A stretch of DNA of 64,000 nucleotides, taken from positions 8,254 to 72,253 of the forward strand of contig JBHLOJ010000005.1 in NCBI GenBank assembly GCA_048940605.1. Direction: 5' to 3'. Of the stretch, positions 18,963-37,960 are shown piece after piece. The stretch is from Promethearchaeota archaeon (GTDB lineage Archaea > Asgardarchaeota > Lokiarchaeia > Sigyniarchaeales > SOKP01). A model generated the notes under the pieces. It was given only the letters and a program-made list of their open reading frames with translations. It searched no databases and was not told the origin of the DNA. A program made the translations under genes and the position numbers. The first letter of the stretch is position 1; each line of letters opens with the position of its first letter.

Positions 18963-20717
18963 TTAAAGATTTAATAAATTATCAGGAGAATATTGAGAGC
19001 ATGCTAATAAAGCCCAAAATAACATTCTTAATTCTATTTTATATGCTATTTTATCAATACGCCAATTAAAATCTTTATCAAGATTTTCTAGCGAAAAGAA
19101 TTCTGTAGATTTTATAATGTAATTAAGTAACCTACTACATAATATTGATTCTTGTTCTTTTAAATCGAGTATATCTAGAATTAATAACACCTTGGCAGAT
19201 TCTGTTATTGAATCATCGATAGATCCTTTAGAAGTTAATAATTTTTTAAGTTCATTCATATAAGGCACAAAAAATCTAGCAAGATCAACTTTTTTTTCCA
19301 GACAATTAATTATAGATAACTGACTATAAATATCTAAAGTTGGGTTAAAATTCTTCCTATTTAAGATATCTAAATTTAATACCTGATTTAGTATGTTATT
19401 TTTAAATGACGAAATTACTTCGCTTTTTGCTAGCAGCCTAAAACAAAGAAGAACATAATAAGTCATTTTTAATTTCTCAGGCAGAAACTCCTCCAATTCT
19501 ATTTTAAGAAATTCCTCAGTAGCATTCAGGTTTATAATGTTAGTTCTATGAATTAAATTTAATTCAGTAACAATTGAAAGACCATAAAATATACTAATTG
19601 GATCTGGCATTATATTTTTTGTTATGCTAAAAACCATTTCAGTTGTGTGATTCCTAAGAAAATCTAATATTTCAATTGCTGTGAAAGGAAATTCTATGTT
19701 TGCCATTTTTAAAATAGATATATAGTAGAAGAGATTTTCTAAATCTATAAAATCTGGATTAACCACTCTTGAATTTAAAAAATTACCAATGTTAATTTTG
19801 AATTTATTTAAAATATCTTGATGTACAATGGGTAAATTACCGAATTGGTCAAGAAAATTCACTTTTTGAGACTCAAGAATTAATTCTCTTGGGATAGTTT
19901 TCAAGTTAGTTGAATTTAAAGAAGACAGTTGATTAACTCCTTCTATAGAATCTAGAGGTTTTTTTTCAGAAATCGTGTTTTCAAATTGATCTATTGAAGG
20001 TTTTATCAGTTCTTTTTTTGGTGTTTTTAAAGTTTCAATAAAATCTTTCTTAGCTTCTTGTAATTGTTCAAGTATATTTGGTTCTCCACTGCTTTTCTGT
20101 TCAAGTTTTTCTGTTCCTTTCTCTTTTTTCATGGGGGAGTCGGCTTTTTTTGGATTCATATTGTATGTTTTTATATTAATAGATAAATCTGAAAAATTTA
20201 AATGTTCTTCAATACCCGGGAAAGTAATATAAGATTTAGCTTTGGAATTTAGATATGTTTTTTTAAATTCATCTAATTTATCCTCGAAACTTTGCGTAAT
20301 TAATTTAAATAGCTTCAAAGTTTCTATTTTGTGTGTATCTAAATCCAGTAAATATTCAATTAAGATTTCAAATAGTAGTTTATTGATGTAATCTGCAAAA
20401 TAGAAATTGAAATAAGAATAATAATCATGCAACTCTGGTTTTATTATCCTTTCTGCTTTCAAATAATTATTTTGAATTTTAGATAATTTGTTAATTGGTA
20501 CTCCAATCGTATTTAATCCTGTTTTTATTGCCTTTGACATCTTCAAAAGTGTATTCTTTACATTTTCCTTGCTCTCTTTAGAAGGATCTTCTCTTAAATC
20601 AACATTTTTATACGAAATGAGGTCTCTTAAATATAAATGAGTTTTACCATAATAATCTAACACTTCATTCCTCAAAAATTGTGAGAATTTTGTAAGAAAA
20701 ATAACAATTTCTTCCAT
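18963..20717 (-). CDS. hypothetical protein with a C-terminal alpha-helical repeat region
   Basis: 584-aa ORF. The central part is a K/E/P-rich, probably disordered linker. The C-terminal half has recurring amphipathic helices of about 45 aa (FYYISILKM, FYGLSIVTEL, TYYVLLCFRLL, IYSQLSIINCL, LFWALLACSQY). Confidence 0.55.
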   Translation of the reverse strand: MEEIVIFLTKFSQFLRNEVLDYYGKTHLYLRDLISYKNVDLREDPSKESKENVKNTLLKMSKAIKTGLNTIGVPINKLSKIQNNYLKAERIIKPELHDYYSYFNFYFADYINKLLFEILIEYLLDLDTHKIETLKLFKLITQSFEDKLDEFKKTYLNSKAKSYITFPGIEEHLNFSDLSINIKTYNMNPKKADSPMKKEKGTEKLEQKSSGEPNILEQLQEAKKDFIETLKTPKKELIKPSIDQFENTISEKKPLDSIEGVNQLSSLNSTNLKTIPRELILESQKVNFLDQFGNLPIVHQDILNKFKINIGNFLNSRVVNPDFIDLENLFYYISILKMANIEFPFTAIEILDFLRNHTTEMVFSITKNIMPDPISIFYGLSIVTELNLIHRTNIINLNATEEFLKIELEEFLPEKLKMTYYVLLCFRLLAKSEVISSFKNNILNQVLNLDILNRKNFNPTLDIYSQLSIINCLEKKVDLARFFVPYMNELKKLLTSKGSIDDSITESAKVLLILDILDLKEQESILCSRLLNYIIKSTEFFSLENLDKDFNWRIDKIAYKIELRMLFWALLACSQYSPDNLLNL

Positions 20718-23757: not shown

Positions 23758-24951
23758 ATGAAAGATAAGGCTAAGTACATTGTAATATATTTACTTTTTT
23801 TCCCTATTGTATTTTCAGCTTATTCAACAAGCCCATTGCTTTCTATGGCATCGTATACTAATCCCTCCATTGCATCACCGATTTTTGGTGTTTCTAATTT
23901 TGAAATAACTCAAAATGTAACATACCAAGTTGAAATCAATTTTACACTGACACAAACCATAGGATCTGGAAATTATTATTTTAAATTTTCTAGAATAAAT
24001 AGTTCATTAGATTTTATGTATACACCACCATATCAAGATAGCGAACTTCTATATAACAATATAACGGGATACGATACGATCCTTATGAATGTTAAAGATA
24101 AATTTAACAATACTCATGATTGGTTTAATGCTACGTTAGGTGCTGGAGAAAATGTTTCAATAAGTCAAAAATATATTGTCGGATTGAATGCAATTAAATT
24201 TTCTGGGATCAGCGAATCTGAGATTGGGATGTATGACACTGCAGATGAAATGTTTGAATTATACTGTAATAAATCAGAACCTTATTATGAAAGGAATGAC
24301 ACGTCTTTAATTTCGTTATCAAATAGTATTGTAAATCCTAGCGATAATCCTATAGAAAAAGCAAAAAAGATTTGTAATTGGGTTTCTGATAATATTGAAT
24401 ATACCGGGGATCTACCTAACGAGATGGGAGCTTTTTGGGCATATAATAATTCAAAAGGTGATTGTAGTGAGTTTTCAAGCTTAATGATTACATTATTGCG
24501 AATTCAAAATATCCCTGCTCGTAAAGTAACAGGTTATTTAGTATCGAATAATCCTTCATTACGCCCAAAACCAGGGGATACGTGGAGTTTTAATGCCAAT
24601 GAAATTATGGGACATGCATGGATGGAATATTATGTTCCTGATATAGGATGGATAGCTTGTGATCCCTTATGGGGATATTTTAATAGAATCGATTATCTTC
24701 GCTTTAATTTAAATGTGGGTGCGAATTTTTTCTTTCCACCTAGTTATATTATAAGTGAATTCGATACATTATTCTATGCAACTTCAGGATTCCATAATTA
24801 TGATTACAACATTACCATTACTGTTATAGAATCTAATCTCGCTCCTTTAGATTCAGTTCCATTGATGTTTTATTTGTTTATTGGAATTGGGTTAGCTGCA
24901 GTATTAATCACTGTTCTTCTTATAATACGAATTAAGAGACACAAAGGATAA
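23758..24951 (+). CDS. secreted, C-terminally anchored transglutaminase-like cysteine protease-fold protein
   Basis: N-terminal signal (YIVIYLLFFPIVFSAYS). Transglutaminase core Cys-His-Asp (GDCSEFSSLM, GHAWMEYY, ACDP). C-terminal TM helix plus RIKRHKG. Confidence 0.75.
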   Translation: MKDKAKYIVIYLLFFPIVFSAYSTSPLLSMASYTNPSIASPIFGVSNFEITQNVTYQVEINFTLTQTIGSGNYYFKFSRINSSLDFMYTPPYQDSELLYNNITGYDTILMNVKDKFNNTHDWFNATLGAGENVSISQKYIVGLNAIKFSGISESEIGMYDTADEMFELYCNKSEPYYERNDTSLISLSNSIVNPSDNPIEKAKKICNWVSDNIEYTGDLPNEMGAFWAYNNSKGDCSEFSSLMITLLRIQNIPARKVTGYLVSNNPSLRPKPGDTWSFNANEIMGHAWMEYYVPDIGWIACDPLWGYFNRIDYLRFNLNVGANFFFPPSYIISEFDTLFYATSGFHNYDYNITITVIESNLAPLDSVPLMFYLFIGIGLAAVLITVLLIIRIKRHKG

Positions 24952-24984: not shown

Positions 24985-26451
24985 TTAAATATACGTATGA
25001 ATTAAATCTACAAGGTTTTTAGAAAAATCTGGTAAATTCTTTTCAATTTTTTCGATTTGGAGAGATTTTTCAATAAATAATAGCAAGTATAGATTATACT
25101 TATCAACCTGGATTTTTTTAAATATTATTTTTTTCGATTCATCTGCTATTCCTGAAGATACTAGAAAATCCTGTTGTAAAATCTTGAACTCTTTGAATGT
25201 TTTATACAGTTCTTGAAAATGAGGAGCAGAAATTTCAAATACTTTTTCAGAAATTTCATCTTTAGAAAAATTAGATAAAATAATTCCATTTTCATTTAAT
25301 AATAATATTGCATCTGAATTGGTTTTTTTAGCAAACTTTTTTAATTGATTTCTAAATAGTTCCCGATTAGGACTCAATTGTGAAAGCCCAAAGGAATATG
25401 CTGTTATTAGACTCCAGTGATCGAAAATACTAGTTTGGAAAATCTTAATTAAGAATCTATCAGAATTCTTCTCTATCTCATCAGCAATTATCTCTAAATT
25501 CTTAAAAATTTCTTTTGAGCCTTTTAAATCTGGATCAAATTTATTTAAGCAAATTACGATAGGAGGGAATTCCTCCAAATCAATTAAGGAGTCTATAATC
25601 TTTCTGAAAAGCTTTAAAGCTTCTCCAATCCTATCAACGTCTTGAATATCAATAAAGAAGTAAATTAGATCAACATTATATAGATAAACTTTACTTTGTT
25701 CAAGGAATCTCTCTCGGTATTGTTTTTGACCAGCTAAATCCCATAGTGTGATCACAGAATTTTGCTCTTCAAAAATATGTTCTTCAGATCTTTCGACTCC
25801 CCTAGTAGGTAAAGCTTTTATAATTTCTGAATACCTTCTTCTTATCCCTAATAGAAAACTTGATTTCCCTGCTTTATCTAATCCTGTTAATAGTACTTTG
25901 ATTTGACGCCTTACAGAGAATGGATCTTTTAGATCTTTTGTGAACTCAAACAATTCCTCTCTAATTTCATCCATAATTCTTTTATGATCGTCCAGTTCTT
26001 TATCTGTTTGTATCTGTGTAGCTGCTTTATCAATCATTATTCTCAAATATTTCATGTTTTCATAAAAAAAGACTCTATCATCCTCATTGATTAATATAGT
26101 AATAGTAGCGGCTAGAGCTTGACCACGTGCAGTTTCTTCAGGAATGAGAAAAAAATATGTTAAACCATTTAATTTCAAATCTGGAAATGGTAAGATACCG
26201 AAATAGTTAACTCCTACATCTGAACCTTGTGAGTCTTGATAAACTGAATCACCCATAAGCAAACTTATAGTTTTCATAGCAATTAAAAGTCCAGATTTCT
26301 CATCTAAATCAATGGGCCAAACAACTCTAGGTGTTGGACCTCTTTCATCGAATATACTTAAAACAATTGCTTTTATTAAGTCAGAGTTGTCAATCTCTGC
26401 ATTTTCTTTATTAACTTGTTTCCCATTCAATTTAGATTCGTTATTAGTCAA
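24985..26451 (-). CDS. three-domain GTPase: novel N-terminal longin-like domain + Rag/Gtr1-like G domain + C-terminal roadblock domain
   Basis: G1 GLDKAGKS, G3 WDLAGQ, G4 NKFD. The G5 region and junction QTSIFDHWSLITAYSFGLSQLSPNRELFRNQLKKFA resemble RagA [34 protein letters not shown]. About 130 aa follow with a roadblock-like alpha-beta-beta-alpha-beta-beta-alpha pattern. Confidence 0.7.
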   Translation of the reverse strand: MTNNESKLNGKQVNKENAEIDNSDLIKAIVLSIFDERGPTPRVVWPIDLDEKSGLLIAMKTISLLMGDSVYQDSQGSDVGVNYFGILPFPDLKLNGLTYFFLIPEETARGQALAATITILINEDDRVFFYENMKYLRIMIDKAATQIQTDKELDDHKRIMDEIREELFEFTKDLKDPFSVRRQIKVLLTGLDKAGKSSFLLGIRRRYSEIIKALPTRGVERSEEHIFEEQNSVITLWDLAGQKQYRERFLEQSKVYLYNVDLIYFFIDIQDVDRIGEALKLFRKIIDSLIDLEEFPPIVICLNKFDPDLKGSKEIFKNLEIIADEIEKNSDRFLIKIFQTSIFDHWSLITAYSFGLSQLSPNRELFRNQLKKFAKKTNSDAILLLNENGIILSNFSKDEISEKVFEISAPHFQELYKTFKEFKILQQDFLVSSGIADESKKIIFKKIQVDKYNLYLLLFIEKSLQIEKIEKNLPDFSKNLVDLIHTYI

Positions 26452-26616: not shown

Positions 26617-28416
26617 TCATGAAATAAATTTCAATCTTACAAGTTTAGATGGTAAAAATGCCTTATTTATAAAATCTACCAAAGTGAGATTATTTCTTTT
26701 AATATCATTCAATGAGATATATTCTATTGCTCCGTTTTGGATGAAAAATTGGTATTCTTCTTGTTTTTTAACCCTTTCTAACAGGTTAATTTCTGCGTTT
26801 TTTTTAAAATGAGTAGAATTAGTATAGTAAAAGGTACCTCCACTAGCTTGAGGTATCGCAATTTTAGGAAAATGCTTTAAATCTAAATTAGCAAAACGAA
26901 AGGGTGCCTTCTTTGAGACATTTTCACTTAATACATATAACTTATTATATTTTCTTGAGAATTCTAAACATAACTGATTCATCTTATTTAGTATTCTTTT
27001 CCCTAAATTGAAAGCATCTGTATGTTCATGTAAGTCAAAATCAGTCAAAAATTTAACTGCTTCATTTAATCCTATAAAACTTATTGATAATTGTTGATCA
27101 TTTAGATTGTATAACAATTTTTCATTAATTACGCCACCACATAATGGTAAATGTTTTGATTTCACCCTTTTCTTTATTATTTCATATTTTTTCAATAAAA
27201 TCTGGGAAGATATTTCCATGTGAATAGCAATAATCTCTAAGAAATTTCCCTCATCTTTACTTATATAAGCATATCGTGGGAGGTTCAAACATACTTCTTG
27301 AAGGATTCCTGAGTTAATATAACCAGCTGAAGTTATTAACTCAATTTCTTTATTTGTTAATGGTTTTATACTGGAATTAACAAGTATGGGTGTTCTCATA
27401 GTGTTAATCTCATTCCAAATATTCGAATACACTTCGTTGAACTCATCTAACCATTTTTTATTTAACAATACCTCATGCTTTGGAGTATTAAACGGATGGT
27501 TGTTGTCGTCCCCTTTATTGAAAGCGATTGTAAGTGCATTAAACAATTTTAGACATTCTTCACTATAGTCTCCATACTTACCTCTAGTATTACTAATAAT
27601 TGGAGCTTGTAAAAACGGTTCAAAAACAGTAGGCCCCGTTTGGATGGAACTCGAAGAAATTGTACTTCCTGTTAAAAAAGATAAATGGTTTAATTCATAG
27701 AGAAAGTTTTTCATTGCAGAAATTAGATCTGAGTCTTTTACATCTTTAATGTAAGGTGATAAACATATTATTAAATGTTTATATCCTTGATTTCCACAAA
27801 ACTCATTTTGCGTTAATGCTAGCCATTTAACTAGATGATGAATTGCTTGTTTTAAATTGTTAGCTGGTTTTAATTTACAGCAAGGGATGAAATTTTTAAT
27901 AGGTGGTATTCCATTCTCTAATATCATACGAGGATCCCAAATTTGGGTCAAAGGTCTTAAATCAAAATATCTTAGTTTATGAATATGGAGATCTCCAGAT
28001 AAATGGGCAGCTGATTCTTCGCTCGTTAAAATTTTTAAATGAGCATATTCTTCAGAAATTCGATTCGCAGCCCTATTATGAATTTTTTCAGGATTAATAA
28101 TTTTTTTTGGATGCTCATCAAATCCACTCTCAAGAATTTTTTCATAGTCCATTAAAGGAATCCCGATTCTTGTGTATAATTTGCGTTCATTTTCAAAGTG
28201 TTGTTCAGAAAGAATTGAACATACAATTTCCCTTATATGTGGCCCTGAGAGAAATTTTATCCCAGAACTAATAATCCTTCTAACTACGAGTTCTGTTATT
28301 TTATTAGCATTCGCTTCGCTCATTCCAGTTTCTTTTATAATACTCTCAAAAATTCTCGATGATTCAAATTCTGCTAGATCCCCTTCAGTTCTAAAAACTT
28401 TTGGAAATAAGTCCAT
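26617..28416 (-). CDS. class III ribonucleotide reductase (NrdD)-like protein lacking the glycyl-radical C-terminus
   Basis: ATP-cone-like N-terminus. GDLHIHKLRY (NrdD GDIHYHDLDY), LNLPRYAY (NrdD LNLPRIAL), FYYTNSTHF (NrdD GYYTNSFHL). The ORF ends soon after, with no Zn-ribbon and no RVCGY motif. Confidence 0.6.
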   Translation of the reverse strand: MDLFPKVFRTEGDLAEFESSRIFESIIKETGMSEANANKITELVVRRIISSGIKFLSGPHIREIVCSILSEQHFENERKLYTRIGIPLMDYEKILESGFDEHPKKIINPEKIHNRAANRISEEYAHLKILTSEESAAHLSGDLHIHKLRYFDLRPLTQIWDPRMILENGIPPIKNFIPCCKLKPANNLKQAIHHLVKWLALTQNEFCGNQGYKHLIICLSPYIKDVKDSDLISAMKNFLYELNHLSFLTGSTISSSSIQTGPTVFEPFLQAPIISNTRGKYGDYSEECLKLFNALTIAFNKGDDNNHPFNTPKHEVLLNKKWLDEFNEVYSNIWNEINTMRTPILVNSSIKPLTNKEIELITSAGYINSGILQEVCLNLPRYAYISKDEGNFLEIIAIHMEISSQILLKKYEIIKKRVKSKHLPLCGGVINEKLLYNLNDQQLSISFIGLNEAVKFLTDFDLHEHTDAFNLGKRILNKMNQLCLEFSRKYNKLYVLSENVSKKAPFRFANLDLKHFPKIAIPQASGGTFYYTNSTHFKKNAEINLLERVKKQEEYQFFIQNGAIEYISLNDIKRNNLTLVDFINKAFLPSKLVRLKFIS

Positions 28417-28571: not shown

Positions 28572-29402
28572 GTGGAATATATGTTAAATTCATATTCTGA
28601 ATCTTCTCTTCATGATTTTTTTACTGAGATTCACAACATTTTGAGAGAAACAAATCCTAAAATAATTGAGATATGGTGTGAAATATCAAAAATTTCCTTT
28701 TTTAATAGATTGGAAAAGACAGAGTTTTATGAATTTATAGATAAATTTGATTTTATATCTCTCAGAAAGGGGAATTATATCTATTATATCGTAATTAATA
28801 AGATTTTATTTATTATTGATTGTATGAGCTTCCTGAAATATGACATCATCTATCTTTCTGAAATTTTAGACTATAATGGATTTGAGGTTTTAATAAAGGA
28901 GATTTTATTAAGAAATAATTATAAGGCAATAACTAATTTTAGATTTTCTGTGAACCCAAAGTTAAAGTTAAAATCAAACATTCATCATAAGAGATATGAG
29001 ATTGATGTTATTGGAATTTATTTAAAATATGTTATAATCATTGATGCAAAACAATGGAGGCGTAAAGATTCCTATGGATCACTAAATAGGGCAGCAAATC
29101 TACAATATAACCGTATTATGGCGTTAACACAAAATCCAGAAGCTTTTTTAAGACTTATTATTTCAATCTTAGGTGAAAGGTTCGATGTAGGGGGGCGTTT
29201 CTCTTTCATTCTTCTGCCTATAATGGTTACTCTCGAAGATAACAGCATAAAGTTAAATGAAAATCAGATACCACTGGTGTCAATACACGAATTGAATGCT
29301 TTTTTACAAGAGATCCCTAATAATCTAAATTATTTTAAAACTCTTCAAATTGATAAAGAAATTCTTAATAAGAATATAAATTATTTTTCTAAGCCCAAGT
29401 AG
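28572..29402 (+). CDS. hypothetical protein with a putative PD-(D/E)xK (Mrr-cat/NERD-like) nuclease core
   Basis: GFEVLIKEILLRNNY ... YEIDVIG ... VIIIDAKQW fits the FE..v..ll / D / (D/E)xK pattern of restriction-endonuclease-fold proteins. Confidence 0.4.
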   Translation: MEYMLNSYSESSLHDFFTEIHNILRETNPKIIEIWCEISKISFFNRLEKTEFYEFIDKFDFISLRKGNYIYYIVINKILFIIDCMSFLKYDIIYLSEILDYNGFEVLIKEILLRNNYKAITNFRFSVNPKLKLKSNIHHKRYEIDVIGIYLKYVIIIDAKQWRRKDSYGSLNRAANLQYNRIMALTQNPEAFLRLIISILGERFDVGGRFSFILLPIMVTLEDNSIKLNENQIPLVSIHELNAFLQEIPNNLNYFKTLQIDKEILNKNINYFSKPK

Positions 29403-30421
29403 TATTTTATTTGCTTTTTTATGAGATTAATAGCAATAGAAATAATCCCACTTTTCACTTTGGGATGAGAAAATAGAATTAATATCATATCTTTTAAATT
29501 TGGATTTTCTCTATCGATGGGTGCCAAATCTAATATACCTTCACTTCCTTTAACACTTATGGATTTAAGGTTTCCTGCACTTAATCCATGAATAATATCA
29601 GAACCAATCATTGAAAGATTCATTCCAATTGTACTAAACAATGATTCAGAAATCCTACTTGAAATAGCTGAAGCTAACATTGTTCCATCTGTTTTTATAA
29701 TCGCTGAAGCTTCAATTCGAGAATCAAGTGTAATTAATTCGTTTAAAATTTCATTCATGTTGGCGGGAGGTATTTTTTTCTCAGGCTCTATTTTAGCTTT
29801 TGATTCGGTTACATGTGGTTCTAATTTCTTTACCGAAATTTTTTTTGATAAGAAACTTAAAACCTCAGTCATATCTTTTTCTAGTCTTTTTTGTTTTAAT
29901 AAAGAAACCTCGGTTTCATCCGTCCTGGAAGGAATAGGTTCTAATGAAGGTTTTAGTTCTTCTTTCTCCTCTTCGAGCATTGATTGTTTAAGTTCTGAAA
30001 ATGCATCAGAAATGGGATCTTTTCTATTTGGTATTAGTGAACTCTGGAATGGTTTTGGTGGTATTTCTTGTAGTGCTTGGCTATTATCTCTTTCTATTTC
30101 TCGTTCAGTTTCGCTTAAACCATCATTAAAAGAATCGATTTCACCCATCTTGCTGTCTTCTGATGGGATTTCATCAAGATTTAATTCTATATCTTTTGGA
30201 ATTTCCTGTAATTTAACCTTTTCTTCCTTTTCATCTATAGTTTCAATTGATATCTCAATCCTTTCACGAGGAGATAATTCTTGATCTATTTTTTCCGATT
30301 TCTTTTTCTTGGATTTTTTTCTATCAGACTTGGAAGAGATTGGGAGTAAAGCCCCACATTTTCTACACGTACGGCTCACTGCTTCGTTATTTGTTGTACC
30401 ACAGTTCTGGCATATGATCAT
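29381..30421 (-). CDS. Zn-ribbon + disordered K/E-rich linker + Roadblock/LC7 (MglB-like) domain protein
   Basis: N-terminal CQNCG...CRKCG. C-terminal EASAIIKTDGTMLASAISS...LFSTIGMNLSMIGSDII...LKSISVKGSEGILDLAPI is a typical Roadblock/LC7 pattern. Strong SD GGAGGGGAG lies 8 nt upstream of the ATG. Confidence 0.75.
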   Translation of the reverse strand: MIICQNCGTTNNEAVSRTCRKCGALLPISSKSDRKKSKKKKSEKIDQELSPRERIEISIETIDEKEEKVKLQEIPKDIELNLDEIPSEDSKMGEIDSFNDGLSETEREIERDNSQALQEIPPKPFQSSLIPNRKDPISDAFSELKQSMLEEEKEELKPSLEPIPSRTDETEVSLLKQKRLEKDMTEVLSFLSKKISVKKLEPHVTESKAKIEPEKKIPPANMNEILNELITLDSRIEASAIIKTDGTMLASAISSRISESLFSTIGMNLSMIGSDIIHGLSAGNLKSISVKGSEGILDLAPIDRENPNLKDMILILFSHPKVKSGIISIAINLIKKQIKYYLGLEK

Positions 30422-30657
30422 AGCTTTATCTCCCCTCCATGAATTTAGATTACTAAAAAATTATAATAGGTATATATTCTCACAAAATTTAAGCATGAAT
30501 CTTTAATATATTTATAGTAAATTTATCAATTTTTTGTTTTTAGTTTTTACTGTATAATTTATTAATGAAAATTTGATTTTATTAATATTAGCTACAAAAA
30601 ATTAAGTGTTTAATATGTGCTTATAGAGTAGATTTAAGAGAAATATAGGAATTTTTC

Positions 30658-31635
30658 CTACTTATAAATAATCTCTTTAATTATATTTGCAAAAGTTTCA
30701 AAATCTTCTTTTTGAAAAACGGGATCATCCTTAAGTAACAATAAATAATAGGGAGTTGACTCTTTTTTCAATGTTATCTGTTTAAATATAAAATTTTTTC
30801 CAAATCTTTGGAGTAGCATCCTATCTTCGTATCTATTTTCTTGTACTCCCGTATATTGGAGTGAATCTGAAAGGGTAAGAAAATAAGGTGTCGAAGCGGT
30901 GAGTAAATGCTTAGTTTCTTCATTCTTATAATATGCACCAATCACTAGAGAGTTATCATCAATAACCACCACTCCTTCTGAGTCAATTTTCTTGGCAAAC
31001 TCGATTATTGTTTTTTCAATGAGTTCCGATTTTGGATATAAGCTTAGTAGAATTTCTGACATTGCCCTTATAATAGTTCCAAAATCATAAATGGAAGTCT
31101 CATAAAAATATATTTCCTTATAATCAGTAGCGCTTTTTACTTTCTCTTTTAAATCTATGATGAGATTTTCCATTTCATTTCGTGCTCCTCTTCGTAAGGC
31201 AGGATCATATTTATGAAGAAATACATATATGGGAGGTTCAATTTCTAATTCATAAAATTGTTTAATTACATCCTTAAAATAGCTAATAGCTTCAGGGATT
31301 CTGGGTTTATTTTGAACATCGATAACATAGATTGCAATTTCAGTACCCTCGAAAAATTTACCTGGATTCTTTAAATATGAGATTCTATAGCTAATTTGTC
31401 CACCTAAATCCCATTCTGAGATTTCTTTTCCTAGAAAATCGAAAACCCTTCTTTGGGCACCTCTAGTTGGAGATAATACAGCAATTTTTGAAAATTCTCT
31501 TTGAAGAGACAGTATAATGCTGGTCTTCCCCGCATCATCCAATCCAGTGAATAATAATTTTGAGGGCTCTGGTTTCTGTGGCTCTTCCTTTTTCAAATAC
31601 ATTATTGATTGTTTTAGATCTTTCTCCAAAGTCAA
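30658..31635 (-). CDS. Rag/Gtr1-family GTPase (G domain + C-terminal roadblock domain)
   Basis: 325 aa (human RagA is 313 aa). G1 GLDDAGKTS, G3 WDLGGQ. G4 is HKYD, which matches the Rag-type HKxD rather than NKxD. AIYVIDV (RagA LIYVFDV). ETSIYDFGTIIRAMSEILLSLYPKS (RagA [23 protein letters not shown]). Roadblock-like C-terminal 125 aa. Confidence 0.75.
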   Translation of the reverse strand: MTLEKDLKQSIMYLKKEEPQKPEPSKLLFTGLDDAGKTSIILSLQREFSKIAVLSPTRGAQRRVFDFLGKEISEWDLGGQISYRISYLKNPGKFFEGTEIAIYVIDVQNKPRIPEAISYFKDVIKQFYELEIEPPIYVFLHKYDPALRRGARNEMENLIIDLKEKVKSATDYKEIYFYETSIYDFGTIIRAMSEILLSLYPKSELIEKTIIEFAKKIDSEGVVVIDDNSLVIGAYYKNEETKHLLTASTPYFLTLSDSLQYTGVQENRYEDRMLLQRFGKNFIFKQITLKKESTPYYLLLLKDDPVFQKEDFETFANIIKEIIYK

Positions 31636-31725: not shown

Positions 31726-33093
31726 TTATAAATTATTAGTAATAAATAATTTAAAATCTTCATATTCCTTAATTTCTATTGGATTAGGGAATTCCTTTCT
31801 ATTTTGAATGATCTCCAGTGCATTAGGTAGTTTTGGTTTAACTTTTATTAATGAGATAATTTCATCTGGAAATTTTGCGGGATCAGCAGTTTCAAAGGTA
31901 ATAGATTTAATTTGTTTATGAGAAGAATAATTTTTACGATAGGTTTGAAGAGCTGCCCATCCTACAGCACCATGTGGTTCGATAATTTTTTTATATCTTC
32001 TATAAAAATCTATTATTGTTTCTCTTGTTAAATTATCACTTATAGAATAAGAAATTATATTATCTCTTAGTTTTTCCATATCTGGACTTTTTAAAATAGA
32101 TCCATTTTCATCAATTTGACCCTGATATAAATCAAAGATACGGGCTAAATTGCTGGGGTTCCCAACATTCATAGCAGATGATAAGCAATTTCTTGATGGT
32201 TCAATTTTGTTGTAAATTCCAGAACTTAAAAATTTCGGAAACTCGTCATTCTCATTCACAGCCGAGACAAATTTACCTAGAGGCAATTCCATTCTAGATG
32301 CTATAATACCAGCTGTAAGATTGCCAAAATTACCTGAGGGTACTGAAAAAATGACTTTTTCATTTGGGTGTTGGATAATTCGTGAATAACTCCAAAAGTA
32401 ATAAATAGTTTGAGGAATAAGACGACCAATGTTAATAGAATTTGCAGATGACAAGTTAAAATCCTGTAAATCTTTATCTGCAAAAGCAGTTTTAATAATT
32501 CTTTGGCAATCATCAAATTTTCCATTTATGCCTATTGCTGTAACATTTTTTCCTAAGGTGGTCATTTGTTTTCTTTGAAGTAGACTAATTTCATCTTTCG
32601 GATAGAGAACAACAACTCTAATTCTTGACATTTCATGAAATGCCTGTGCAACTGCGCCTCCCGTATCACCTGAAGTTGCTGTTAATATTATTATTTCTTT
32701 ATCTTCAGTTGAGAGGAAATATTCCATTATTCTTGCTAAGACTCTTGCTCCAAAATCCTTGAAACTACAAGTAGGACCTTTACTTAGATAGCAAAGATAA
32801 TCAAATTTTTCAATTTTTTCCAATCCAATTTCAAAATTTAGAGCATTATGTATAATTTTTCTTAAAGACTGTTCTGGTATTTGCTCTTTAAGAATTTTAG
32901 ATAAGACCTTAAACGCAATTTCTTGTAAATTTAAATCTCCAAAACTAAATATCTCTTGATGTTCCAGAGTTGGAATTCTATTTAACATGTACAAACCTTT
33001 ATCTGAAGCTTGGCCTTTTAAGATGGCAGTCTTAAAGTCGACATCTGGAGCGCTGTAATTTGTTGAGTGAAATTTTATCATAACCGATCTCAT
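31726..33093 (-). CDS. thrC: threonine synthase
   Basis: PLP-lysine motif TCSFKDFGARV, TATSGDTGGAV and SGNFGN, with threonine synthase length and order. Confidence 0.85.
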   Translation of the reverse strand: MRSVMIKFHSTNYSAPDVDFKTAILKGQASDKGLYMLNRIPTLEHQEIFSFGDLNLQEIAFKVLSKILKEQIPEQSLRKIIHNALNFEIGLEKIEKFDYLCYLSKGPTCSFKDFGARVLARIMEYFLSTEDKEIIILTATSGDTGGAVAQAFHEMSRIRVVVLYPKDEISLLQRKQMTTLGKNVTAIGINGKFDDCQRIIKTAFADKDLQDFNLSSANSINIGRLIPQTIYYFWSYSRIIQHPNEKVIFSVPSGNFGNLTAGIIASRMELPLGKFVSAVNENDEFPKFLSSGIYNKIEPSRNCLSSAMNVGNPSNLARIFDLYQGQIDENGSILKSPDMEKLRDNIISYSISDNLTRETIIDFYRRYKKIIEPHGAVGWAALQTYRKNYSSHKQIKSITFETADPAKFPDEIISLIKVKPKLPNALEIIQNRKEFPNPIEIKEYEDFKLFITNNL

Positions 33094-33099
33094 TTATAT

Positions 33100-33642
33100 C
33101 TATTTTAATAATTCGTTGATTTTGTTGATTGCTTCTAGTGGAGAACTTACACCATATATCATGTCATTTCTTCTATTATCTAACTTTTGATTAGCCATCT
33201 TAGAAGACCAACCTTGAACAGATGATAAGGCAACTAAAGGTTTATCATATATCCAGGCAAAACAAATCTCAGATAAAGTTCCTGCTTTACCACTAATGGC
33301 TAAACATAAATCACCTGTAAGAACGACAACAATATTTCTAGCTTGGGAAAAGGGACAAGGTATTACAAGATCTACGTATTTATTAGCATAGTTTTTTTCT
33401 GTATGAGGAATAATACCGATAGTAAAACCGCCCTCTTCTTTAGCACCTTTACATATTGCTTCCATTACGCCAGAAAGTCCCCCACATGCCACAGCATAAT
33501 TATTTTTTGCGATTAATCTACCAATTTCTATAGTAATATTTTCTATCTCTTTATCAATTTCACTAGCTCCAATAACAGAAATTACCGCTTTAAACTTATT
33601 TTTAAAATTAAAACTCATAAAGTCATATCCCCATCTTGTCAA
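33100..33642 (-). CDS. TIGR00725/LOG-like Rossmann-fold nucleotide-binding protein
   Basis: VIGAS....., GGLSGVMEAICKGAKEEGGFTIGIIP, SGKAGTLSE. Confidence 0.65.
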   Translation of the reverse strand: MTRWGYDFMSFNFKNKFKAVISVIGASEIDKEIENITIEIGRLIAKNNYAVACGGLSGVMEAICKGAKEEGGFTIGIIPHTEKNYANKYVDLVIPCPFSQARNIVVVLTGDLCLAISGKAGTLSEICFAWIYDKPLVALSSVQGWSSKMANQKLDNRRNDMIYGVSSPLEAINKINELLK

Positions 33643-33653
33643 TTAAAAATCAA

Positions 33654-34685
33654 CTAAGTTGTATAACCTCTTTTTATTGATATAGCAATTAAATCGTTTA
33701 TAATAGCAGATGCTGCTTCAAAGCTTCCTGCACCTCTCCCCATTAAAAGTATTGGTCCTGCATATTTAGTTTCTAATTCCACTATATTAAAGGTTCCGTT
33801 AATATTAAGAGGAGAACTTTTATCAATTAAACGAGGTTCAACTGATAATTCACCATTTTCTGCTATTGCTAAATGTTTGATAACATAACCATCTGGTTTA
33901 ACTAATTCAATCGCGTGAGTAGTTACTTTCGAAATGCCTTCAACTTTAACGTCAGTAATAGTTTTTGACCATCCTAACAATTCATTTGCTAATATAACTA
34001 ACTTTCCAGCAGCATCATATCCATCGATATCTAAAGTAGGATCTGATTCAGCATATCCCAGTTCCTGCGCCTCTTTTAAAGCTAAAGGAAAATCAACGCC
34101 TTCTGCAGTCATTCTGCTTAAAATAAAGTTGGAAGTACCATTTAATATCGCTCTAATACTGAGAATTTCATTACCAATTAAATCTTCTTTAATCCCTAAT
34201 GAAGGAACACAACTTGCCACGGTTGCTTCAAATTTCACATAGCAATTATTTTGTTTAGCTAAATTCTTAATTTTATCATATTCCAGATAGAATGGTCCTT
34301 TATTTGAAGAAATTACATCAATACCATTATTGAGGGCTTCAATAATATGAGATAAACCAGGTTCTCCGGTTTTAGGGTTTGTAGGGGTAGTTTCTATGCA
34401 AATGGATATATCTAATTTAGAAATTAAATCAATAGCTTTTACATTTTTCCTCCAATAAGGCAAATTTCTAAAATTGTCACCGACATCTAGTACTTCTTTT
34501 AGATCAATTCCATTTTCATTAATAAGTGCTCCATCTATTTCAAAAATGGAATTCACTATAACGTTTAAATTAAATTTTTGTTCGAGAAACTGATTCTTTT
34601 CATATAATAATTGAATTAAACTAGTTCCAACTATACCTTTTCCAATTAGACAAATATTGACGTTCATCATTTTTATTAAATTCAA
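33654..34685 (-). CDS. hom: homoserine dehydrogenase
   Basis: N-terminal Rossmann motif LIGKGIVGT. SSNKGP, FEATVASCVP, ILNGTSNFILSRM, AQELGYAESDPTLDIDGYDAAGKL. Confidence 0.85.
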   Translation of the reverse strand: MNLIKMMNVNICLIGKGIVGTSLIQLLYEKNQFLEQKFNLNVIVNSIFEIDGALINENGIDLKEVLDVGDNFRNLPYWRKNVKAIDLISKLDISICIETTPTNPKTGEPGLSHIIEALNNGIDVISSNKGPFYLEYDKIKNLAKQNNCYVKFEATVASCVPSLGIKEDLIGNEILSIRAILNGTSNFILSRMTAEGVDFPLALKEAQELGYAESDPTLDIDGYDAAGKLVILANELLGWSKTITDVKVEGISKVTTHAIELVKPDGYVIKHLAIAENGELSVEPRLIDKSSPLNINGTFNIVELETKYAGPILLMGRGAGSFEAASAIINDLIAISIKRGYTT

Positions 34686-34765
34686 TTTAATATTATTCTG
34701 GATTTAGAGTAATTTTTGTCGGCAATTCGTCGTTTAATTTATTAAATCTAATAATCATTCTTTCA

Positions 34766-35257
34766 TCAGCTAGTAATTAAGAATAACTTTTTCTCCTCAC
34801 AAATTTTTCTTAGTTCATTATTAAGCTCCTTCTTATTCATATCTTCTGGGAATTCGATTTTTAGCTTAACATTACTCACTTCTTCTAATTCTGTAAACTT
34901 AGCTTGTAATTCTAACACATTTATATTTTTTGAAGCTAATCTTTTTATTGTATCCATCACATCTGTGTCAAATACGTGACCTGTTAAAATAATGGTAATT
35001 AGCTTCTTTTCAATCTCGTAATTTATATTCTCAATTTGAATATTTTTTTCTTTTAACTCTCTTTTTATATTTTTTATACTAATTTCTTGAATTTCCTCAT
35101 TCAATTCGAAAGTTACATTTACAGGGATTAAATTATTGATTTTTCTATCATGGAAGTGAAGTATCCCATAAATGTTTCCACCATTTTTAGAAATAGGTTT
35201 AATTAACTCAATTAAACTTCCAGGAGTATCTGGCAACTTTACTTCCAAATTTATCAT
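34766..35257 (-). CDS. ACT-domain protein (probable amino-acid-binding regulatory subunit)
   Basis: LEVKLPDTPGSLIELIKPISKNGGNI is an ACT-type beta-alpha start. A second ACT-like half follows. The gene lies directly upstream of hom. Confidence 0.55.
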   Translation of the reverse strand: MINLEVKLPDTPGSLIELIKPISKNGGNIYGILHFHDRKINNLIPVNVTFELNEEIQEISIKNIKRELKEKNIQIENINYEIEKKLITIILTGHVFDTDVMDTIKRLASKNINVLELQAKFTELEEVSNVKLKIEFPEDMNKKELNNELRKICEEKKLFLITS

Positions 35258-35352
35258 GATCTTTCTCCTCTATTTGAATATTCAAATCGGAACTTAAGAT
35301 TTTTGGATTATCGACTTGTGTACAATTCTATTAATAATTTTCAATATAAATT

Positions 35353-36318
35353 TTAAAATTTTATTACATCAATAGACTCTTCCTTTCCGTTATTTATTCT
35401 CAGAAGATTTGGATCTTTAATAATGTTACCTATAATATTAGTATTTAACCCATATTCTTGAAATGTCTCTGCTATTTCTTTACAGTTTGCTTTAGGAGCA
35501 GTTAATATAAATGAAGTTGTTAAATACATTTTAATGTAGGTTTCTAAATCGTAACCATCATCTAATAATTTTCGAGGAATTTTAATTTTAGAAATATTCA
35601 CGTCAGCACCGACTTTCGAATAATTAATCATTTGACACAAAGTACCAAAAATTCCTCCATTGGATACATCTTTGGACGCATTAACTATATGTTTTTGCGC
35701 AATTACGTTCATAGATTTTCTCTTTCTCAATATTTCTTCGGAATTTTTAAATGTAGTGGTATCATAATATAATTTACTTGCCTTACCTGGTTTTCCATCA
35801 AAATCAACAGCTAATATAATATTATCTCCTACTTGTGCATTACCCGCAGATATATAATCTTCCTTTTTAATTTCACCTATCATTGTAGAACTTAGCTCAT
35901 AATATTTTCCATTTACATTAGTATGCCCTCTAATAATCGGAACTTTAAATTTCTGGGAACCTTCACATATTCCTTCAAGCAAATCATTACAGATATCTGG
36001 TTCTTTTACAGAAATAATTATACTTGCAGCTAATGGAATCCCGCCACATGCGTAGATGTCATCTACACTAACTAAGATTGAACTAAAACCTGCTCCGAAA
36101 GGAAAATTTTCTATGAAGGTGGTTTTTATTCTGTCAGTAGTAACCAGTATATATTTATCATCATTTTTGATAGTAGCAGCATCTTCCCCTATATCTGAAT
36201 AAATTCTTGCACTTTTAAACGATTTTTTATCAATAAATTGAACAATTGGACTTATTTGTTTCTTTTCTTGAATGTATTGATTGTTCTTAATACTATTAGC
36301 TATCTTTTTAAGTGTCAT
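35353..36318 (-). CDS. AIR synthase-related (PurM/ThiL/HypE superfamily) protein
   Basis: IGEDAATI...ILVTTDRI N-domain pattern and the DVSNGGIFGTL C-domain pattern. Confidence 0.6.
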   Translation of the reverse strand: MTLKKIANSIKNNQYIQEKKQISPIVQFIDKKSFKSARIYSDIGEDAATIKNDDKYILVTTDRIKTTFIENFPFGAGFSSILVSVDDIYACGGIPLAASIIISVKEPDICNDLLEGICEGSQKFKVPIIRGHTNVNGKYYELSSTMIGEIKKEDYISAGNAQVGDNIILAVDFDGKPGKASKLYYDTTTFKNSEEILRKRKSMNVIAQKHIVNASKDVSNGGIFGTLCQMINYSKVGADVNISKIKIPRKLLDDGYDLETYIKMYLTTSFILTAPKANCKEIAETFQEYGLNTNIIGNIIKDPNLLRINNGKEESIDVIKF

Positions 36319-36454: not shown

Positions 36455-37960
36455 ATGGAGGAATTATTTGAAACCTCAATTATAAAGGGGTTAATTTTCA
36501 GTTCATATGGAGACTTAGGTCCGCAACCAATTTATGTATGGCCTAAATATTATACTGAAAAAGAATTAGAAAAGATTAAAGAGGAAAGGCAAAGACAAAA
36601 CCTTCTTACATTAACAACCAGAGATGTAACCCAAATCTCTATAAAAAACCTTAGTTTATTTATTAGCGATAAGGTATTTACACCAGATATTGATACTCAA
36701 AATTTAACGTATTTCGCCATATTACCTTATCCAGATTTCAGTGTAACCTCTTTAACATATTTTCATTATATTAATATTAATTCTTCTAACTCTCAGATCC
36801 CTACTGCTTTTTCAATATTAGTTGAAGAAAATAGTAGAAGTTTTTTATATAATAATATAAACAGAATTAAACCTATTGTGATTGAATTTTTCAGATCATT
36901 TGATAATAATTTGATAGATAATTATCCACCTCAAGAGAAAATAGAGCCTGCTTTTTATGAATTATTCAAAAAGATAGTTGAAATTGAGAGAAGTCCATCA
37001 ACACCTATTACAACCCATAGAAAAATGAAGATTCTATTTGCTGGATTAGATGACAGTGGAAAAACTAGTTTTTTACTTTCTGTAGATCGCAAATATAGTA
37101 AGTTAATAGGTTTAAAACCAACAACAGGGGCAAGTATCAAATCAATTGAGGCTTTGGGAGCAACAATATTTTTATGGGATCTGGGAGGTCAACTTACTTT
37201 TAGAAAGAAATATATTACTAAAGCAGAAATTTATTTATATGAAGCAGATTTGTTGTTTTATTTTATTGATATCAGAAACAAAATTAGGTTTGAAGAAAGC
37301 ATTGAATATCTTTTAGATTTGAAAAAAGTATTGAAGCAGTTTAATCAAAATACTCCAATCATTTACATTTTATCAAAGGGAGATTCGGATATAATTAAAA
37401 CTGGAGAAATTATAGAAAATATCGAAATTGTGAAAAATAGATTAAATGAAATTTCACCAGAAGAATCCCCTGAGATATATGTGACTAGTATCTTTCAAAT
37501 ATTTACCATATTGAGAGCATTCTCATCTGGAATCTCAAAATTGAGCCCTAATAGAAATTTAATCAATCATAATCTTAGAAACTTCTCGATAAAAACAAGT
37601 TCATATCTTACACTGTTGTTAAGTGTAGATGGTTTAGTTTTGGCAGATTTTTATTCCCCTAAAGCGAGTAAATTAACAAAGATAACTGAATCAGAAGAAA
37701 TAATTAACGTGTTTGAGGTAACAGCACCGCAATTCGCCATGTTATTTAAAATATTCTCTAGATTTAAAGCGTTGCAACAAGAAGAAGCGGTATTTAAAGT
37801 TGCAGACTCAGTGATACTTTTCAAAAAGATTAAAGTAGCAGAGAACGACATGTTCATCTTATTTCTGATTGATAGTGAAAAAAGAAAAGAAAAAATAAAT
37901 ACTAAATTAACCACTTTCCTCGATCAAACAAATGATCTACTCTTAAGATATATATCTTAA
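36455..37960 (+). CDS. three-domain GTPase, paralog of 24985..26451 (N-terminal longin-like domain + Rag-like G domain + roadblock domain)
   Basis: G1 GLDDSGKTS, G3 WDLGGQ, degenerate G4 SKGD. VTSIFQIFTILRAFSSGISKLSPNRNLINHNLRNFS junction. The N-terminal domain aligns with ORFs at 24985, 50014 and 51220. Confidence 0.7.
   Translation: MEELFETSIIKGLIFSSYGDLGPQPIYVWPKYYTEKELEKIKEERQRQNLLTLTTRDVTQISIKNLSLFISDKVFTPDIDTQNLTYFAILPYPDFSVTSLTYFHYININSSNSQIPTAFSILVEENSRSFLYNNINRIKPIVIEFFRSFDNNLIDNYPPQEKIEPAFYELFKKIVEIERSPSTPITTHRKMKILFAGLDDSGKTSFLLSVDRKYSKLIGLKPTTGASIKSIEALGATIFLWDLGGQLTFRKKYITKAEIYLYEADLLFYFIDIRNKIRFEESIEYLLDLKKVLKQFNQNTPIIYILSKGDSDIIKTGEIIENIEIVKNRLNEISPEESPEIYVTSIFQIFTILRAFSSGISKLSPNRNLINHNLRNFSIKTSSYLTLLLSVDGLVLADFYSPKASKLTKITESEEIINVFEVTAPQFAMLFKIFSRFKALQQEEAVFKVADSVILFKKIKVAENDMFILFLIDSEKRKEKINTKLTTFLDQTNDLLLRYIS

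Follow-up and report, generated by a model that had tools for sequence, protein, structure and literature searches.

The window analysed here is a 64,000-nucleotide stretch of DNA from an Asgard (Lokiarchaeia-type) archaeon. Near its middle, two genes that we call A and B lie next to each other on the minus strand, exactly where the original prediction had placed them. A encodes a small GTPase and B a protein in which a zinc ribbon is followed by a disordered linker and a roadblock domain. The features of the locus are collected in Table 1. The public gene call for A (P0001) is 323 aa long and thus starts at a TTG at 31629, not at 31635.

Table 1. Features of the A-B locus and its surroundings (positions in the window; residue numbers refer to the protein concerned)
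Feature	Position	Strand	Description	Basis
ORF A, RagGtr-family small GTPase	30658..31635	-	325 aa	Pfam, 8yl2_A match, gene block common with MK-D1
G domain of A	31039..31560	-	about aa 26-199	motifs, alignment to RagA and Gtr1
A, G1 motif	31522-31545	-	GLDDAGKT	direct reading
A, G3 motif	31396-31410	-	DLGGQ	direct reading
A, G4 motif	31204-31215	-	HKYD	direct reading
A, G5 motif	31084-31098	-	TSIYD	direct reading
A, G5 and G-to-C-domain junction	31027-31101	-	ETSIYDFGTIIRAMSEILLSLYPKS; includes TSIYD	
C-terminal domain of A, presumed roadblock-type	30661..31038	-	aa 200-325	AF2, Foldseek, profile
A-B spacer	30422..30657	-	236 bp, AT-rich; T6 run, TATA-like stretches	direct reading
Shine-Dalgarno-like element	within 30422..30657	-	GGAGGGGAG, just ahead of the ATG of B	
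ORF B, zinc-ribbon/disordered-linker/roadblock protein	29381..30421	-	346 aa	
Zinc ribbon of B	30332..30421	-	aa 1-30; C4, C7, C19, C22; CxxC-x11-CxxC	
Polybasic patch of B	30287..30331	-	aa 31-45, KSDRKKSKKKKSEKI; K/R-rich in aligned homologs too	
Short conserved motif in the linker of B	30029..30073	-	aa 117-131, LQEIPPKPFQSSLIP	alignment
Conserved helix preceding the roadblock domain of B	29840..29917	-	aa 169-194, LLKQKRLEKDMTEVLSFLSKKISVKK	AF2 helix, pLDDT 80-87
Roadblock domain of B	29384..29773	-	aa 217-346	AF2, Foldseek, profile
Longin-like/GTPase/C-terminal-domain Rag-like paralog	24985..26451	-	488 aa; ortholog of MK-D1 WP_147663355.1	Pfam Gtr1_RagA, 84.3 bits
Second longin-like/GTPase/C-terminal-domain Rag-like paralog	36455..37960	+	501 aa	Pfam Gtr1_RagA, 68.4 bits

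In an alignment of 37 orthologs of A, the residues H141, K142, D144 and Q80 are invariant, as is the P-loop. The latter, GLDDAGKT, is of the Arf type.

Pfam matched A to Gtr1_RagA with 94.9 bits (E 6.6e-27, cutoff 22; model positions 1-219 of 232) and to Arf with 57.2 bits; for the G domain alone, the scores were 69.0 and 56.9 bits, respectively. The Gtr1_RagA match spans the whole G domain, whereas that to Arf ends at G4. In HMMER alignments with human RagA (6ces_A) and yeast Gtr1 (3r7w_A), HKYD corresponds to HKMD, TSIYD to TSIWD and LYPK to LIPN, and the alignments run on to cover the first helix and the first strand of the C-terminal domain of Rag. The G4 motif, the G5 region and the junction, all previously described as Rag-like, thus align with the eukaryotic proteins residue by residue. 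When A was compared by BLAST with MK-D1 GTPases carrying published class labels, the RagGtr paralogs scored 75-184 bits (RagO, 184) against 33 for ArfR, 26 for MglA1 and 20 for ArfL. A neighbour-joining tree of 166 columns, small in sampling and moderate in support, grouped the Asgard RagGtr proteins with RagA/Gtr1 (83% bootstrap) and A with LokiRagO (100%), so that the G-domain phylogeny also placed A with Rag/Gtr and not with Arf/MglA.

It is very improbable that A is really an Arf-like GTPase whose likeness to Rag is superficial. The names of its homologs in databases, mostly 'ADP-ribosylation factor-like' or 'SAR1 family', point that way, as do the P-loop and a BLASTP search in which Arl3 reached 59 bits over 117 aa and Gtr1 48.5 bits over 163 aa; yet the higher-scoring and longer Pfam match is to Gtr1_RagA, the HKxD and TSI[WY]D motifs and the junction line up with RagA and Gtr1, and A carries a C-terminal domain that is absent from Arf proteins. 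Moreover, it clusters with RagGtr rather than with ArfR or ArfL, and its ortholog lies in the RagGtr clade of a published tree. Judged by sequence, A belongs to the Asgard family of RagGtr GTPases, in agreement with the original prediction.

The ortholog in question is already represented in the PDB. Chain 8yl2_A matched residues 5-320 of A with an E value of 5.9e-87; structure 8YL2 (2025) is WP_147663357.1 of Promethearchaeum syntrophicum MK-D1 and bears the title 'Homo Tetrameric RagA-like small GTPase from Asgard Lokiarchaeota (LokiRagO) in complex with GTP'. A is 45% identical to LokiRagO over its full length and 51% in the G domain, and both share the arrangement of N-terminal extension, GTPase and C-terminal domain, the PTR.AQR switch I and WDLGGQ; G4 reads HKFD in LokiRagO and HKYD in A. 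In MK-D1 the gene order is Rag508 (minus strand), AIRS, LDcluster4, further genes, RagO, a NERD/Mrr-like gene (minus strand), the longin-GTPase paralog and a transglutaminase-like gene (minus strand), and A is the positional ortholog of LokiRagO. What distinguishes the two loci is that MK-D1 has no zinc-ribbon/roadblock gene within 10 kb, whereas in the lineage of the window B lies directly downstream.

The novelty that the original prediction implied is not supported: Table S3 of bioRxiv 10.1101/2024.02.28.582541 assigns WP_147663357.1 to RagGtr, roadblock-fused Asgard Rag-like GTPases are in print (PMC10933270; bioRxiv 10.1101/2020.10.19.343400; bioRxiv 10.1101/2024.02.28.582541), and a crystal structure of the MK-D1 ortholog exists. 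The GTPase itself is therefore one more member of a known family and nothing new beyond that. By its PDB title, the ortholog of A is a homotetramer and not a Rag-like heterodimer. A literature search found no paper on the structures 8YL2, 8ZLA, 9M28 or 9JUE or on 'LokiRag', which are known by their PDB titles.

The AF2 model of A has a mean pLDDT of 60, its input alignment being too uniform (86% mean column identity). In the C-terminal domain (pLDDT 30-50) the elements follow the order alpha-beta-beta-alpha-beta-beta-beta-alpha. Full-length Foldseek alignments of A were obtained with 8yl2, Gtr1 and RagA, and a profile of the C-terminal domain found residues 217-342 of 8yl2 as its sole match. 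Neither profile search nor hhalign linked this domain by sequence to roadblock proteins, and hhalign detected no similarity to the roadblock domain of B (probability 0.1%). The MK-D1 ortholog is labelled X-GTPase-Roadblock (PMC10933270 supplement), and we presume that the domain is of the roadblock type, as in Rag GTPases.

The zinc ribbon of B matched Pfam Zn_Ribbon_1 at E 3.5e-4, which is under the cutoff, and was modelled by AF2 with a pLDDT of about 75; two relatives (P0351 and P0391) score above the cutoff. Nine of residues 31-50 are K or R. The polybasic patch is followed by an acidic, disordered linker of roughly 180 aa. In the short motif conserved within it, L117, E119, I120 and P124 are invariant in the alignment, and a related motif was recognised by eye in the distant members P0387 and P0412 as well as in the protein of locus L019. 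In the helix that precedes the roadblock domain, L180, E181, D183, M184, V187, L188, F190 and L191 are invariant.

The AF2 model of the C-terminal domain of B shows the order alpha-beta-beta-alpha-beta-beta-beta-alpha with a pLDDT above 90 for residues 222-342. Foldseek matched it with probability 1.0 to 7f8m, 9jue, 7yh1, 3kye, LAMTOR2 and MglB (target-normalised TM 0.65-0.77 to 7f8m, 9jue, 3kye, LAMTOR2 and MglB), and the domain profile found 7f8m among PDB sequences at E 2.9e-8. A profile of full-length B produced spurious matches to designed 'Cake' repeat proteins and a weakened roadblock match; the domain-only profile worked. Pfam Robl_LC7 misses the B of the window even when the domain is submitted alone, and distant members exceed its cutoff of 23 (P0391 with 25.8 bits and P0407 with 29.2 bits). 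According to the structural model, the C-terminal domain of B has a roadblock fold, and the earlier description of B as a zinc ribbon, an acidic/Lys-rich linker and a Roadblock domain is borne out by motif reading, AF2, Foldseek and the profile. The family is small: its profile reached E <= 1e-3 for no more than 120 cluster representatives among 1.84 billion, and all named members are from Promethearchaeota or Lokiarchaeota (Lokiarchaeia-type).

The adjacency of A and B, noted earlier for the window, is kept well beyond close relatives. A scan of genome contigs with a single protein yielded only 12 close relatives, and deeper lineages were reached through contigs encoding homologs. In 21 of the 25 distinct loci, the next gene downstream of A on the same strand is B (the window, L001-L006, L009-L014, L017, L018 and L020-L025; L008 is a duplicate of L002). 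They include the Loki's Castle metagenome as well as L020 and L021, in which A is about 50% identical to that of the window. In two loci, genes are inserted between A and B; one is L019, where there are three such genes and the longin-GTPase paralog follows B after 68 bp. In the remaining two, MK-D1 and JAIZWK010000001, the 10 kb around the A ortholog contain no B. Two look-ups that began from B likewise found A upstream. L001 retains the A-B junction, but other genes have taken the place of those that follow B.

Across 15 loci (the window and 14 others), the spacer ranges from 108 to 295 bp; by gene calls, L020 has a gap of 39 bp and L021 one of 240 bp. Its length, L020 excepted, together with the promoter-like and T-run elements makes co-transcription of A and B doubtful. 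A Rosetta-stone search revealed no A-B or B-GTPase fusion proteins, and we found no description of the A-B pairing in the literature.

Synteny extends over the whole block of about 15 kb around the pair and takes in unrelated genes, among them threonine synthase and NrdD. In many lineages, threonine-biosynthesis genes immediately precede the neighbourhood of A, B and the Rag-like paralogs on the same strand. Two such Rag-like paralogs are found nearby. The position of the 488-aa paralog is kept in most loci, and it is this conserved position that may link it to the A-B pair. Its N-terminal domain gave weak yet consistent Folliculin matches, and a profile of that domain matched no PDB sequence. 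The 501-aa paralog is divergent from the AIRS gene and occupies the same position in L002, L017, L022, L023, L015 and L016. Among the ORFs inspected between window positions 20000 and 42000, by reading or by scanning, there was no LAMTOR1-like protein and no second stand-alone roadblock subunit.

The retention of the B gene immediately downstream of A through substantial divergence suggests that B is most likely a dedicated partner of A. We therefore favour, by a little over an even chance, a reading in which A is a RagGtr GTP switch and B its putative dedicated roadblock-type partner. In such an arrangement, the presumed roadblock-type C-terminal domain of the GTP-binding switch would mediate oligomerisation, a roadblock dimer of B would dock on A, and the zinc ribbon, polybasic patch and linker may serve for localisation or for recruitment of other factors. 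B would then bind A physically, serving it as Ragulator-like scaffold, MglB-like GAP or GEF; its tether-like N-terminal half inclines us slightly towards a scaffold or adaptor. As the whole block is syntenic, this partnership is one that we infer. Nor can the pairing be obligatory, because B is missing beside the MK-D1 ortholog. That locus and JAIZWK010000001 indicate that A-type GTPases can work with no B next to them, and perhaps with no B at all.

Synteny of the block means that part of the A-B adjacency may be inherited gene order. A reading that goes further, in which B serves another GTPase (e.g., the longin-GTPase paralog a few kb distant, or one of the numerous other small GTPases that these genomes encode) or has a non-GTPase role, appears unlikely to us, though it deserves serious consideration. 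The same genomes keep the entire neighbourhood, metabolic genes included; B always lies between A and the 488-aa paralog, which it directly precedes in L019, and the MK-D1 locus lost B and retained both A and the paralog. The spacer resembles an independent promoter region, and MK-D1 GTPase genes are generally not in operons with roadblock genes (PMC10933270). Inherited order alone would, however, sit uneasily with L001, where the A-B junction outlasts the loss of the NERD-like gene, NrdD and the paralog, and with L010, L011, L014 and L017, where it outlasts that of the threonine genes. The junction also survives where A has diverged to about 50% identity, the gap in L020 being 39 bp.

A more specific role, in which a roadblock dimer of B sits on the switch regions of A and speeds GTP hydrolysis as MglB does for MglA, is in our estimate improbable. 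LAMTOR2 and Asgard roadblock proteins match B as well as or better than MglB does in Foldseek (E about 1e-6 and probability 1.0 for MglB), A is no MglA, and no sequence feature separates a GAP from a scaffold; what speaks for an MglB-type GAP is the MglB match itself, the layout of a GTPase gene beside a roadblock gene and the GTP-bound crystal of the A ortholog. The presence of GTP rather than an analogue in LokiRagO would agree with hydrolysis that is intrinsically slow and depends on a GAP, a role for which the nearby longin-GTPase paralog, with its folliculin/NPRL2-like GP motif and Arg finger, is an alternative candidate. Still more speculative, and in our view rather far-fetched, is a pre-eukaryotic Rag module comprising A, B as a Ragulator-like tether and the two longin-GTPase-roadblock paralogs, the fused longin domain acting as a folliculin-like GAP. 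If it were true, the proximity of threonine genes would hint at an ancestral tie of Rag-type GTPases to amino-acid status.

In summary, the zinc-ribbon/roadblock protein B is a candidate partner of A. Of the Rag-Ragulator-like module originally proposed, the Rag-type GTPase, the roadblock protein and the conserved pair stand, and the implied novelty does not. The role of Asgard Rag-like GTPases has been stated to be unknown, and regulators of MK-D1 GTPases could not be matched by gene layout (PMC10933270); the A-B locus offers a concrete conserved GTPase/roadblock match in uncultured Lokiarchaeia-type lineages. Since the locus sets B beside the ortholog of a crystallised GTPase, a binding or GAP/GEF experiment would be cheap to design.

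A comparable neighbourhood described in Asgard archaea is an operon that combines a LAMTOR1-like roadblock protein with a Rab-like GTPase and a DENN protein, its GTPase not belonging to the Rag family (bioRxiv 10.1101/2020.10.19.343400). It resembles the A-B locus in joining a roadblock-superfamily protein to a small GTPase in a conserved neighbourhood and differs from it in that the A-B locus has a RagGtr GTPase and no DENN gene. With MglA/MglB the pair shares the adjacency of a small GTPase gene and a roadblock-domain gene, and the domain of B matches MglB structurally. In contrast to that system, A is not of the MglA type (26 bits against MK-D1 MglA1) and carries its own C-terminal domain, B has an additional zinc ribbon and linker, and the two genes are usually more than 100 bp apart.

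The likeness to RagA/Gtr1 with Ragulator/EGO lies in the G domain and C-terminal domain of A, its HKxD and TSI[WY]D motifs, the junction and the Pfam family, and in the LAMTOR2 roadblock fold of the candidate partner B. The P-loop of A is nevertheless Arf-like, and its ortholog is a homotetramer by PDB title, whereas eukaryotic RagA/RagC form a heterodimer. Ragulator/EGO-TC has five LAMTOR subunits against a single roadblock gene here, no LAMTOR1-like lipidated tether was seen in window positions 20000-42000, and LAMTORs lack the zinc ribbon and long disordered linker of B. To our knowledge, archaea have no TOR kinase. The outcome of an A-B interaction assay would be relevant to the question whether partnerships between Rag and roadblock proteins are older than eukaryotes.

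Both genes of the original prediction were found on the minus strand: A, encoding a RagGtr-family GTPase, and B, encoding a zinc ribbon, a linker and a roadblock domain. The HKYD motif of A sits exactly where it had been placed. The window has a G+C content of ~29%, and its nearest relatives in the databases are proteins of Promethearchaeota/Lokiarchaeota metagenome-assembled genomes, which identifies the DNA as that of a Lokiarchaeia-type Asgard archaeon. In an alignment of 37 orthologs, the motif residues of A do not vary. The public gene call for A is 323 aa long, which implies a TTG at 31629 as its start.

Genes of the A-B region and other notable features of the window
Feature	Coordinates	Strand	Description
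ORF A	30658..31635	-	325 aa; G1 GLDDAGKT, G3 WDLGGQ, G4 HKYD at 31204-31215, stretch ETSIYDFGTIIRAMSEILLSLYPKS
ORF B	29381..30421	-	346 aa; CxxC-x11-CxxC zinc ribbon, then K/R-rich patch, then acidic linker
Rag-like paralog	24985..26451	-	488 aa; longin-like N-terminal, GTPase and C-terminal domains; ortholog of MK-D1 WP_147663355.1
Third Rag-like GTPase	36455..37960	+	501 aa; Gtr1_RagA 68.4 bits; longin-like N-terminus; G4 SKGD
AIRS-domain, ACT-domain, homoserine dehydrogenase, LDcluster4 and threonine synthase genes	31726..36318	-	directly upstream of A
NERD/UPF0102 (nuclease-fold) gene	28572..29402	+	276 aa; weak matches; convergent with B, 22-bp overlap
NrdD-like anaerobic ribonucleotide reductase	26617..28416	-	Pfam NRDD 217.8 bits
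Large ORF	14076..18251	+	1391 aa; no Pfam match at E <= 0.001
Large ORF	18963..20717	-	584 aa; no Pfam match at E <= 0.001
Transglutaminase-core protein	23758..24951	+	hydrophobic stretches at both ends

The protein encoded by A matches the Pfam Gtr1_RagA model over positions 1-219 of 232 (E 6.6e-27, 94.9 bits), compared with 57.2 bits for Arf, where the match ends at G4. For the G domain by itself, the two scores are 69.0 and 56.9 bits. HMMER alignments place HKYD, TSIYD and LYPK of A on HKMD, TSIWD and LIPN of human RagA and yeast Gtr1, and the aligned region continues through the opening helix and strand of the Rag C-terminal domain. A has an Arf-type P-loop, and in BLASTP its match to Arl3 is locally slightly stronger than that to Gtr1. 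The G domain is thus a mosaic, as noted for the same GTPase class in PMC10933270. In a comparison with class-labelled G domains of Promethearchaeum syntrophicum MK-D1, A reaches 184 bits for LokiRagO and 75-108 bits for five further RagGtr paralogs; ArfR, MglA1 and ArfL give 33, 26 and 20 bits, respectively. A small NJ tree joins A and LokiRagO with 100% bootstrap and groups Asgard RagGtr with RagA/Gtr1 (83%), with a separate Arl3/Arl8A/ArfR group (70%). This tree, of the kind proposed for deciding between Rag/Gtr and Arf/MglA, puts the G domain on the Rag/Gtr side with moderate support.

LokiRagO (WP_147663357.1) is also the top PDB match (8yl2_A, E 5.9e-87, residues 5-320), released on 2025-09-10 and titled in Foldseek 'Crystal Structure of Homo Tetrameric RagA-like small GTPase from Asgard Lokiarchaeota (LokiRagO) in complex with GTP'. 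In bioRxiv 10.1101/2024.02.28.582541 the protein is classed as 'RagGtr' and included in the tree; eukaryotic Rag sequences are reported there to be nested among Asgard relatives. In MK-D1 its gene lies in a block that matches that of the window. A longin-GTPase paralog, divergent from an AIRS gene, comes first, then LDcluster4 and the GTPase; next are an opposite-strand NERD/Mrr-like gene, another longin-GTPase paralog and a transglutaminase-like gene. Thus, A is the positional ortholog of LokiRagO, with 45% identity. The original interpretation is partly supported: the assignment to the Rag/Gtr family holds, whereas the implied novelty of the GTPase does not, as its kind was already known.

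The weakest point of the analysis is the C-terminal domain of A, which probably adopts a roadblock fold; the main basis is the label of its ortholog, X-GTPase-Roadblock, in the supplement of PMC10933270. The AF2 model of this domain has a pLDDT of 30-50, because the alignment is too uniform. Its predicted elements follow the roadblock order (alpha-beta-beta-alpha-beta-beta-beta-alpha), and Foldseek aligns the model over its full length with 8yl2, Gtr1 and RagA. By sequence, the domain matches 8yl2 only, and profile comparison gave no similarity to the roadblock domain of B.

For B, the AF2 model agrees with the predicted architecture. The zinc ribbon has a pLDDT of ~75, residues 32-134 are disordered, helices span 136-150 and 169-194, and the C-terminal domain has roadblock topology with a pLDDT >90. 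With this domain, Foldseek retrieved the Asgard roadblock proteins 7f8m, 9jue and 7yh1 as well as Streptomyces 3kye, LAMTOR2 and MglB, all with probability 1.0 and target-normalised TM of 0.65-0.77. Pfam Robl_LC7 did not match the window protein itself; the domain profile matched 7f8m (E 2.9e-8), and among distant family members the Pfam cutoffs of both Zn_Ribbon_1 and Robl_LC7 were passed. The family is small: at E <= 1e-3 the search yielded 120 cluster representatives out of 1.84 billion proteins, and all named members are Promethearchaeota or Lokiarchaeota. The linker differs among members in both length and composition and retains a short motif, LQEIxPxPF..., in which L117, E119, I120 and P124 are invariant, as well as the helix ahead of the roadblock domain.

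The database names of these proteins are mixed. P0335 and P0338, which share 90% clusters with A and B of the window, are filed under Thorarchaeota, another member under Promethearchaeota, and homologs with 50-90% identity under Odin-, Hod-, Hermod- or Heimdallarchaeota. The phylum given for these assemblies therefore seems unreliable.

The support for the pair comes from comparative genomics only. In 21 of the 25 distinct loci compared (window included), B follows directly 3' of A on the same strand; among them are two that were reached with B as the query, and contigs from the sediment metagenome of Loki's Castle. The pair is still adjacent in L020 (39-bp gap) and L021, where A is only ~50% identical to that of the window, and in L001 the junction is kept while the genes beyond B are replaced. 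One gene is inserted between A and B in L007 and three in L019, where 68 bp separate B from the longin-GTPase paralog downstream. Neither MK-D1 nor JAIZWK010000001 has B within 10 kb of the A ortholog. The main rival explanation holds that A and B are neighbours through inherited gene order and that B serves another GTPase, notably the neighbouring longin-GTPase paralog. Two observations favour it and count against over-reading the adjacency: synteny covers the whole block, threonine synthase and NrdD included, and the A-B spacer, 236 bp in the window, is usually 108-295 bp and promoter-like in appearance. Caution is also called for by the lack of A-B fusions among the matches examined.

The 488-aa paralog carries invariant 'F-D/E-x-x-GP-x-P' and 'ARG' motifs in the N-terminal domain of 10 orthologs, similar to the GP motif together with the arginine finger in folliculin/NPRL2-type GAP longins (PMC12290439). 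All 10 weakly match Pfam Folliculin (best E 1.2e-4, below cutoff), and the domain had no match among PDB sequences. The 501-aa GTPase has a GP motif ('YGDLGPQP') without ARG; its gene is divergent from the AIRS gene and adjoins an MtrH gene, a position kept down to MK-D1, as is the convergent pairing of the transglutaminase-core gene with the 488-aa paralog. Gaps in the gene run upstream of A are 95, 80, 11, 6 and 90 bp. In the distant lineages L018, L019 and L020, too, the gene immediately before the GTPase is threonine synthase; a Rag-type GTPase beside amino-acid biosynthesis genes is an intriguing coincidence. The NERD/UPF0102 gene keeps its position in most loci, with a Mrr_cat-like gene instead in MK-D1. 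With a score of 206.5 against an NCBIfam equivalog cutoff of 326, the NrdD-like protein falls well short, which makes it a divergent member.

Most likely, A is a GTP switch that oligomerises like its ortholog, and B is most plausibly a roadblock-type partner docking on it. The tether or adaptor would be formed by B's zinc ribbon, its polybasic patch and the linker that carries the short motif. Both the binding and the choice among scaffold, GAP and GEF are inferred.

Roadblock genes are generally not found beside MK-D1 GTPase genes, which makes matching them hard (PMC10933270). The GTPase itself is known; the candidate partner B is a useful, testable lead. No account of a RagGtr/zinc-ribbon-roadblock pair that is conserved turned up in the literature. 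Roadblock- and longin-fused Asgard Rag-like GTPases have been published, and the structure of LokiRagO, the ortholog of A, is already solved (8YL2). A conserved Asgard roadblock/Rab-like/DENN operon has been published as well, but its GTPase is explicitly non-Rag.
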